Shown: piece after piece, positions 20,397 through 21,195 of the stretch
Position numbering within the stretch: the stretch's first letter is position 1
How the letters are laid out: each line of letters opens with the position of its first letter
Assembly (NCBI GenBank): GCA_026999335.1
Contig: JALTPW010000176.1
Coordinates: forward strand, 1-34,686
Direction of reading: 5' to 3'
Length of the DNA: 34,686 bases
Source: Chromatiales bacterium
GTDB taxonomy: Bacteria > Pseudomonadota > Gammaproteobacteria > SZUA-152
Program-made: the position numbers and the translations under genes
The notes under the pieces: generated by a model
What the model was told of the DNA's origin: nothing
The model's database searches: none
The model's input: only the letters and a program-made list of their open reading frames with translations

Positions 20397-21195
20397 TAGA
20401 CGCCTCCCACCAACGCAACCTGTCACCTTTTGACGTGTCACGCAACATTGCTAGACGATCGAGCAACTCAAATTCGTCGAGGTGCAAAATTTCAGGTGTT
20501 AATGGTTGATCGTCTTCGTCAGAGCATCTATGGTGCGCGCTAAGCCGGAGCACATCAATAGCACTCTTCTTGTCAGTATCATATAAATGGGACGATGCTG
20601 CGGTCAAGAAAAGTATCCCGGGTTTCGCGCATACCGCAGCAGTGTTTAACTTTGCGCAGACCATGTGCGCTAGCATGCTGAAATTGAATACGTCATAAGG
20701 CAGTCCGAGCCACAGATCTGACGACCGCATAAACACGTGGCAATTCAGTTTGCCACGGCGTAGCGAAAATGAAATCGCAACCGTGCACGGCACATCCTTG
20801 GTTTCTGGTGGGTTCTCACGCCAAATAGTTAGTGTGGCCTGGCGTGTGTAGGAATCGCGTTTTAGCGCTGATATAACGTAATGCAACTGTGATTGGATGC
20901 GCGGGCCATACGCGCCAAAGAATGTAACACCGTCGTCGCTGTAATCAGCGATACGCTCATTGTACGACGCGATTGATGCTACTCGGTGATCGCCGGTAAG
21001 AATCCAAAACGCCTCAGCGGCCATAAATCGATACGATAATTTACGCTCCTTGATCGTGAGGACTGGGCGGCGCATATCAACTGTAAATGTTTGGTGCAAC
21101 AGCTCCGTTGTTACAGTGCCGCGCGGAGTAGCGATATCACCAAACTCGAGCATTCGATCCAACGCGTCTAGCCACATCGAATTAAACGATCTCAT
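20389..21195 (-). CDS. Thymidylate synthase homologue, dCMP-type (dCMP methyl/hydroxymethyl-transferase)
   Basis: GAYGPR, TRQA, catalytic DVPC, MRSSDLWLGLPYD (Asp at the Asn177-equivalent position), SSHLY; GAGGAGG RBS. Confidence 0.85.
   Translation of the reverse strand: MRSFNSMWLDALDRMLEFGDIATPRGTVTTELLHQTFTVDMRRPVLTIKERKLSYRFMAAEAFWILTGDHRVASIASYNERIADYSDDGVTFFGAYGPRIQSQLHYVISALKRDSYTRQATLTIWRENPPETKDVPCTVAISFSLRRGKLNCHVFMRSSDLWLGLPYDVFNFSMLAHMVCAKLNTAAVCAKPGILFLTAASSHLYDTDKKSAIDVLRLSAHHRCSDEDDQPLTPEILHLDEFELLDRLAMLRDTSKGDRLRWWEASNG

Follow-up and report, generated by a model that had tools for sequence, protein, structure and literature searches.

A thymidylate synthase homologue in a phage contig is a predicted dCMP 5-hydroxymethylase of a T4-like nucleotide cassette

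The contig JALTPW010000176.1 of a Chromatiales bacterium assembly (GCA_026999335.1) encodes on its minus strand a homologue of thymidylate synthase (TS), which raises the question of whether this enzyme acts on dUMP or dCMP and whether it leaves a methyl, hydroxymethyl or hydroxyl group at C5. The window, meaning the whole stretch of 34,686 nucleotides that was analysed, is the entire 34.7-kb contig and is a phage sequence, binned with a bacterial assembly that is fragmented into 1068 contigs. Judged from sequence, the TS homologue is likely to be a folate-dependent dCMP 5-hydroxymethylase, from an extensive phage clade separate from that of T4 gp42, that would act in a T4-like replacement pathway, and the phage probably replaces the cytosine in its DNA with a modified cytosine. 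This kind of enzyme is already known, and the window protein adds a member to it rather than a new kind; the value of the assignment is a corrected annotation for a very large phage family that is routinely labelled "thymidylate synthase".

The open reading frame (ORF) of the TS homologue contains TKDVPCTVAISF and MRSSDLWLGLPYDVF, and the database copy of the protein likewise starts at Met6 and comprises 268 residues. Pfam family PF00303 (Thymidylat_synt) was matched over residues 13–216 (9.4e-24; 84.4 bits versus a cut-off of 24.3), whereas all seven matching NCBIfam thymidylate synthase equivalog models stayed below their cut-offs, the best being NF002496 with 62.6 bits versus 325. An earlier note on this DNA had suspected that an annotation as thyA would be wrong, and this is probably so, with relatives (gp28 of Stenotrophomonas phage AXL3, HTVC200P and JGI records) labelled as thymidylate synthase. 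The same note had placed the catalytic Cys in DVPCT and an Asp at the residue that discriminates dUMP from dCMP; both are found as described (Table 1), the discriminator Asp being the last residue of the RSSDLWLGLPYD motif, and the motifs quoted for comparison are present in the fetched sequences of E. coli ThyA (RSCDVFLG-LPFN) and T4 gp42 (RSNDVVFG-FRND).

In E. coli ThyA numbering, which is used below unless another protein is named, the window protein conserves R21, E58, Y94, C146, R166, S167, D169, H207, and Y209 and carries the substitutions L143D, H147T, and N177D. According to the published rules, an enzyme with Asp in place of Asn177 uses dCMP instead of dUMP (Hardy & Nalivaika; Liu & Santi; Graves et al., as cited in PMC8670742 and PMC13326640). 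ThyA has Leu at position 143, three residues ahead of the catalytic Cys, where hydroxymethylases have Asp or Glu (PMC6400193; PMC13326640). The equivalent Asp145 of T4 dCMP hydroxymethylase (dCH; gp42, EC 2.1.2.8) activates a water molecule for attack on the exocyclic methylene and is proposed as a hydroxymethylase signature (PMC6400193). A change of Asp169 to Asn is given as the mark of flavin-dependent 5-hydroxy-dCMP synthases (PMC13326640). The window protein has Asp at positions 143, 169, and 177, the pattern of T4 gp42 and of MilA, the CMP hydroxymethylase of Streptomyces rimofaciens, and with both Asp143 and Asp169 in place a hydroxymethyl product is predicted. The opinion that the product cannot be read from the sequence, as held in the earlier note, is out of date, since these two positions partly predict it. 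Moreover, the residues that shield hydride transfer in ThyA (Leu143, Trp80, and Trp83) are absent, their places being taken by Asp143, Ile80, and Tyr83, and the C terminus is unrelated to the tail shared by ThyA and the dCMP methyltransferase of phage Xp12. The deoxyribose determinants, Ser163 (ThyA-167) and Arg123 (ThyA-126′), are of the deoxy type and indicate a 2′-deoxy substrate.

At E ≤ 1e-30, the family of the TS homologue comprises 608 clusters (50% identity). An alignment by MAFFT of the 119 closest database relatives (55–61% identity) and 150 representatives of 50%-identity clusters revealed Asp177 in every one of the 269 sequences, which makes it a fixed family character and not a chance substitution. 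Asp143 was found in 266 and Asp169 in 268 of the 269 (Table 1). Thr147 is invariant in the 119 close relatives and present in 143 of the 150 representatives (262/269), Ser167 in 119/119 and 148/150, respectively (267/269), and Arg126 in all 119 and all 150. Cys146, Glu58, Tyr94, the phosphate-binding residues Arg21, Arg166, and Arg126′, and His207/Tyr209, all present in the window protein, are nearly invariant in the same set.

The AlphaFold2 model of the TS homologue, built on 101 sequences picked from the 269, reached a predicted local distance difference test (pLDDT) value of 95.9. Foldseek matched it to 396 PDB chains at E ≤ 0.001, all of those listed being TS or MilA. The top seven were MilA (5jnh, 5b6d, 5b6e, and 5jp9 are its entries), with E values of 6e-20 to 7e-19, TM scores of 0.75–0.80 and 27–30% identity, and ThyA chains ranked behind them (E about 1e-16, TM about 0.68). 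MilA shares with the window protein the motifs DV(P/A)CT and AYGPRI as well as Asp at the discriminator position. When the protein was aligned by HMMER to chains of known structure, this Asp stood opposite the Asn of ThyA in the three printed ThyA alignments (4dq1, 4h0r, and 3qj7) and opposite Asp in the two printed MilA alignments (5jnh and 5b6d), with DVPCT aligned to the DVACT of MilA; alignment to the solved structures thus does not place Asn at the site.

The relationships of the family were examined in a quick maximum-likelihood tree of 64 rows (11 references, 45 random representatives of 230–330 residues and 8 random close relatives), from which MilA was absent. The window family and the dUMP hydroxymethylase gp29 of phage SPO1 form one clade (SH-aLRT 98), the Xp12 dCMP methylase joins ThyA (92), and T4 gp42 and RB69 gp48 lie apart from the window family on long branches. 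AXL3 gp28 falls within the 12-row subclade of the window protein (94). A phylogeny with T4 gp42, Xp12, and SPO1 had been proposed in the earlier note: in this tree the family is separate from ThyA and Xp12 and does not join T4 gp42, but groups with the SPO1 enzyme. Of the reference enzymes, SPO1 gp29 also scored highest in BLASTP (E 1e-27, 28.5% identity), and it shares TKD(V/R)PC, GD(I/V)xxPRG, SDDG(V)xF, and Asp143 with the window protein, yet it differs by Asn at 177 and 147, in keeping with its uracil substrate, and by a C-terminal extension of about 130 residues. Two features are independent of the tree, namely the R127Q change, common to the window protein and SPO1 gp29 only, and the ThyA-type C-terminal tail together with Trp80, kept by Xp12 only. 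An ordinary ThyA, which neighbours E. coli ThyA in the tree, is encoded on another contig of the same assembly.

Five overlapping genes on the minus strand encode, in order, an S-adenosylmethionine (SAM) methyltransferase, a MazG-like protein, a kinase, the TS homologue in fourth place, and a dCMP deaminase (Table 1). The overlaps at starts and stops in this cassette (19926–23279) range from a few to ~22 bases, that between the methyltransferase stop and the MazG start being 4 bases, and suggest one translationally coupled operon. Of 58 IMG/VR loci found via the TS homologue, 55 carried a deaminase homologue beside it, 49 carried MazG, 27 the methyltransferase and 18 the N-terminal domain of the kinase. 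Several close relatives among these loci have MazG directly adjoining the TS homologue with no kinase between, so that a dedicated kinase is either dispensable or encoded elsewhere in those phages.

Table 1. Positions of the TS homologue, its diagnostic codons and the other cassette genes in the window. Residue counts refer to the 119 close relatives and the 150 cluster representatives.
Feature	Position	Strand	Details
TS-fold gene, predicted dCMP hydroxymethylase	20389..21210	(-)	273-codon ORF; 268 aa from the likely start, Met6 at 21195
Catalytic Cys codon TGC, residue 142 (ThyA Cys146)	20785..20787	(-)	In DVPCT; Cys in 119/119 and 149/150
Asp codon GAT, residue 139 (ThyA Leu143, T4 dCH Asp145)	20794..20796	(-)	Hydroxymethylase water-activating position; Asp in 119/119 and 147/150
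Asp codon GAT, residue 165 (ThyA Asp169)	20716..20718	(-)	Retained; Asp in 119/119 and 149/150
Asp codon GAC, residue 173 (ThyA Asn177, T4 dCH Asp179)	20692..20694	(-)	Cytosine-versus-uracil discriminator; Asp in 119/119 and 150/150
dCMP deaminase	19926..20441	(-)	Pfam PF00383 2.6e-18; 53% identical to AXL3 gp27; a start at Met16 (20396) is likely and would lie a few bases inside the TS gene end
P-loop nucleotide kinase (about residues 1-165) with C-terminal domain	21182..22096	(-)	phrog_761 "thymidylate kinase" 4e-13; weak PDB and Pfam P-loop kinase matches
MazG-like NTP pyrophosphohydrolase, predicted dCTPase (analogue of T4 gp56)	22075..22485	(-)	Pfam PRA-PH 1.6e-11; phrog_671 3.7e-25
Small-molecule-type class I SAM methyltransferase	22482..23279	(-)	265 aa from Met40 of a 304-aa ORF; Pfam Methyltransf_23 8.3e-16; 65% identical to AXL3 gp31

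The neighbourhood of the TS homologue agrees with what has been published for cytosine-modifying phages. Deaminase, TS, and PRA-PH genes are reported to lie together in 104 of 149 modified-cytosine contigs versus 17 of 277 unmodified ones (bioRxiv 10.1101/2024.12.05.627091), co-occurrence of TS with PRA-PH and deaminase domains is reported in eLife (PMC8670742), and TS homologues with the Asn177-to-Asp change beside deaminase and MazG genes have already been described in the MetaGPA papers. Every sequence-level test that was run points to cytosine specificity, and the dCMP specificity put forward in the earlier note is thereby supported by the invariant Asp177, by MilA as the closest structure and by the genes nearby.

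From the active-site residues and the fold, together with their conservation across the family and the linkage of the genes, we infer a reaction modelled on those of T4 dCH and MilA. Cys142 would attack C6 of dCMP, while Asp173 would hydrogen-bond to and protonate N3/N4 of the cytosine and so select C over U. Methylene-tetrahydrofolate (methylene-THF) would be added at C5 and, after elimination of THF, the exocyclic methylene would receive a water activated by Asp139 instead of a hydride, which would yield 5-hydroxymethyl-dCMP (5hm-dCMP). In the surrounding pathway, MazG would convert dCTP to dCMP and remove the competing nucleotide, the P-loop kinase, a predicted functional analogue of T4 gp1, would phosphorylate 5hm-dCMP, and the deaminase may divert (modified) dCMP toward dUMP and dTMP; some such deaminases have been reported to deaminate modified dCMP (bioRxiv 10.1101/2024.12.05.627091). 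Incorporation of the modified dCTP by the family-A polymerase of the phage would then replace the cytosine in virion DNA.

Such a pathway would resemble that for hydroxymethyl-dCTP in T4 (gp56, gp42, gp1, and cd), with the MazG-like protein comparable to gp56, the P-loop kinase to gp1, and the deaminase to cd, and the window protein shares Asp143, Cys146, Thr147, Asp169, Asp177, Ser167, and Arg126 with T4 gp42. The two systems nevertheless differ. Identity to T4 gp42 is 26% over 80 residues (BLASTP E 3e-5) and the T4 enzyme belongs to a separate, long-branched lineage; the predicted dCTPase of the window is of MazG type, and a SAM methyltransferase is linked in place of a glucosyltransferase.

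The only cultured system with the same cassette and a phenotype is AXL3, in which gp27–gp31 correspond one by one, and in unchanged order, to the five cassette genes and adjoin the lysis genes, with 41–65% identity; the same cassette is found in Pseudoxanthomonas phage PW916 (ORF58–63). The replication module of the window is collinear with that of AXL3, but AXL3 is a 47.5-kb siphovirus and the structural genes of the window, with their ejection proteins, look podovirus-like. AXL3 DNA is reported to resist 35 of 37 restriction enzymes, all 35 having G or C in their sites, and to be digested by just two, TasI and Tru1I, which have A/T-only sites (PMC7504290). The cassette was interpreted there as a pathway to dTMP, and the DNA modification was left chemically uncharacterised. 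AXL3 also encodes ThyX (PMC7504290), and its TS homologue is therefore not needed for dTMP. If the cytosine-replacement reading is true, it explains the restriction resistance of AXL3, a phage-therapy candidate, suggests that such phages will be difficult to handle with restriction enzymes or Cas-based tools and makes their DNA a likely target of modification-dependent defences.

Several points weigh against the assignment as a dCMP hydroxymethylase. The choice between a methyl and a hydroxymethyl product depends for the most part on a single site being Asp rather than Asn or Leu, and the Xp12 methylase is also polar (Asn) at this site. In T4 dCH the second signature residue is Ser94, the partner of Asp145; by sequence alignment its counterpart, two positions ahead of the catalytic Tyr, is a Gly in the window protein (FGAYG) and Ala in SPO1. 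The structural placement of the discriminator Asp comes from hidden Markov model alignments to solved chains and from fold ranking, with which MAFFT agrees, and not from residue-by-residue superposition, and the long branches of SPO1, T4, and RB69 (and Xp12) make their placement in the tree unsure. Literature searches found no assayed member of the clade. Finally, five of seven deaminase-linked TS homologues are reported to have made 5-methyl-dCMP (bioRxiv 10.1101/2024.12.05.627091), and some of these may belong to the clade.

The last of these results also favours a dCMP 5-methyltransferase like that of Xp12, in which Asp177 would select dCMP, a hydride from THF would complete the methyl group and the phage DNA would carry 5-methylcytosine (5mC). 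The RSSDLWLGLPYD motif is almost identical to RSSDLFVGLPYD of Xp12 (RSSDLxxGLPYD), Asp177 is common to both enzymes, which are 31% identical, and so is the order MazG-TS-deaminase. In Xp12 (MT664984, 43943–47656) these three genes are followed by an overlapping ORF, with no methyltransferase or kinase in that stretch, and gene order alone cannot tell 5mC from 5-hydroxymethylcytosine (5hmC) pathways. However, Xp12 has Asn143, Pro147, Trp80, and the ThyA-like tail YNPKPEVIE (YDPHPGIKAPVAI in E. coli) and joins ThyA, whereas the window protein, with Asp143, Thr147, Ile80, and an unrelated C terminus, is separate from both. Asp and Asn at position 143 are, moreover, not equivalent, since no 5hm-dCMP was formed by the D145N mutant of T4 dCH, as stated in PMC6400193, and the closest structures to the window protein are hydroxymethylases. 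An Xp12-like methylase is consequently unlikely.

A second alternative concerns the gene that is the unexplained part of an otherwise known kind of system, the conserved methyltransferase. The C5 product may be other than plain hydroxymethyl, or may be converted at the nucleotide level by this enzyme, so that the base in the DNA would be a methylated 5hmC derivative. Via an alignment of the methyltransferase, 79 IMG/VR loci were found, of which 68 with at least 3500 bases downstream were kept and 11 with short flanks dropped; the TS homologue, recognised by its RSxD...G.PYD and DxPCT motifs, was present in all 68, MazG in 65, the deaminase in 63, and the kinase in 43. The methyltransferase is also more conserved than the TS homologue (66–78% versus 55–61% identity), with many invariant residues that include a TPxYDGxRHAxNHxHE block. 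Foldseek and a wide structural alignment placed it among generic class I small-molecule methyltransferases (MT), not DNA methyltransferases, and no glycosyltransferase or other tailoring enzyme was seen beside it in the phrog and Pfam annotation of the window. On the other side, most of the loci share helicase and polymerase at 45–79% identity, so the linkage may partly reflect shared ancestry, and many of the more distant TS relatives lack a methyltransferase nearby, as the count of 27 in the 58 loci found via the TS homologue indicates. The top structural matches, CmoM, FPP-MT, toxoflavin N-MT, and cap N7-MT, are generic and tied at Z 17–19, and the substrate is not readable from the fold. 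As an account of the TS homologue in place of a plain hydroxymethylase, a methylated product is rather improbable.

In a wider form that keeps the predicted hydroxymethylase, the methyltransferase could methylate the installed hydroxymethyl group, probably at the nucleotide level, and the cassette would then make an undescribed cytosine derivative such as 5-methoxymethyl-cytosine, which would also explain the modification at G/C sites in AXL3. We regard this as a tentative possibility, more doubtful than not, although the linked methyltransferase and the modification in AXL3 together could reveal a new DNA base. Literature searches found no methylated 5hmC base in phages, and the word "methoxymethyl" did not occur in the matches listed. 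The methyltransferase has a basic C-terminal tail, and many of its homologues end in ...K(G/R)APF, an ending that might serve in docking to a replication protein.

The remaining alternatives are all highly improbable. A flavin-dependent 5-hydroxy-dCMP synthase like RB69 gp48 or DLP3 gp80 is suggested by Asp177 and an acidic residue at 143, which the window protein has in common with RB69 gp48 (Glu143, Asn169, Asp177). The diagnostic D169N change is, however, absent: Asp169 is kept in the window protein and in 268 of its 269 relatives, which argues that it is not such an enzyme; Gly173, which is Gln in RB69, is kept as well, and the window annotation contains no glycosyltransferase.

An enzyme for uracil nucleotides, either an ordinary dTMP synthase or a dUMP hydroxymethylase of the SPO1 type, would be supplied with dUMP by the adjacent deaminase, is how the AXL3 and PW916 papers annotated relatives of the protein and would fit the shared clade with SPO1 gp29. 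It is opposed by the family-wide Asp177, which is Asn in SPO1 gp29 and ThyA; by the loss of dCMP binding and activity reported for T4 D179N (PMC6400193); by the wide distance from all NCBIfam thymidylate synthase equivalog cut-offs; and by the cutting of AXL3 DNA at A/T-only and not at G/C-containing sites. An enzyme that hydroxymethylates the ribonucleotide CMP, as MilA and BcmA do, for a nucleoside metabolite rather than for DNA can be set aside just as firmly although MilA is the best structural and among the best PDB sequence matches, since its ribose determinants Ala176 and Lys133′, whose A176S/K133R mutant is reported to reverse the preference (PMC5175136), are replaced by Ser and Arg in the window protein and by the same residues in 267 and 269 of the 269 relatives, respectively, and since the gene sits in a phage replication module, in a context of phage DNA metabolism and not of antibiotic biosynthesis as in MilA.

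The predicted dCMP hydroxymethylase and its cassette belong to a minus-strand block from 19926 to 34347 that holds the genes for nucleotide metabolism and replication, the latter encoding an SNF2 helicase, a VRR-NUC protein, an exonuclease, a PD-(D/E)XK nuclease, the family-A polymerase, a DnaJ-like protein, and a primase. The plus strand encodes, from 669 to 19633, terminase, portal, scaffold, major head, adaptor, and ejection proteins, a tail fibre, and an endolysin. A megablast search of positions 19000–24000 against a phage collection gave zero matches, and the window thus has no close sequenced relative in that collection; no terminal direct repeat of at least 40 bases was found in the contig.

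The kinase ORF is 55% identical to AXL3 gp29 in its N-terminal half and 41% in its C-terminal half. Its C-terminal 140 residues (21182–21604 on the minus strand) form an extra fused domain, which is conserved in AXL3 gp29 at the latter identity. Zero matches were obtained for this domain in Pfam at E ≤ 10 and in a PDB sequence search, and an Atlas lead connected it with viral clusters in which 19–36% of members carry Pfam uracil-DNA glycosylase (UDG), at a score of 0.89, below the 0.9 line. The domain is possibly UDG-like, and its GERF and HPQY sequences resemble UDG motifs A and B. A 622-residue protein is encoded on the plus strand (4101–5969), with the portal gene on one side and the scaffold gene on the other; its sole match, to PcfJ, is confined to residues 436–481 (Pfam 4.1e-09).

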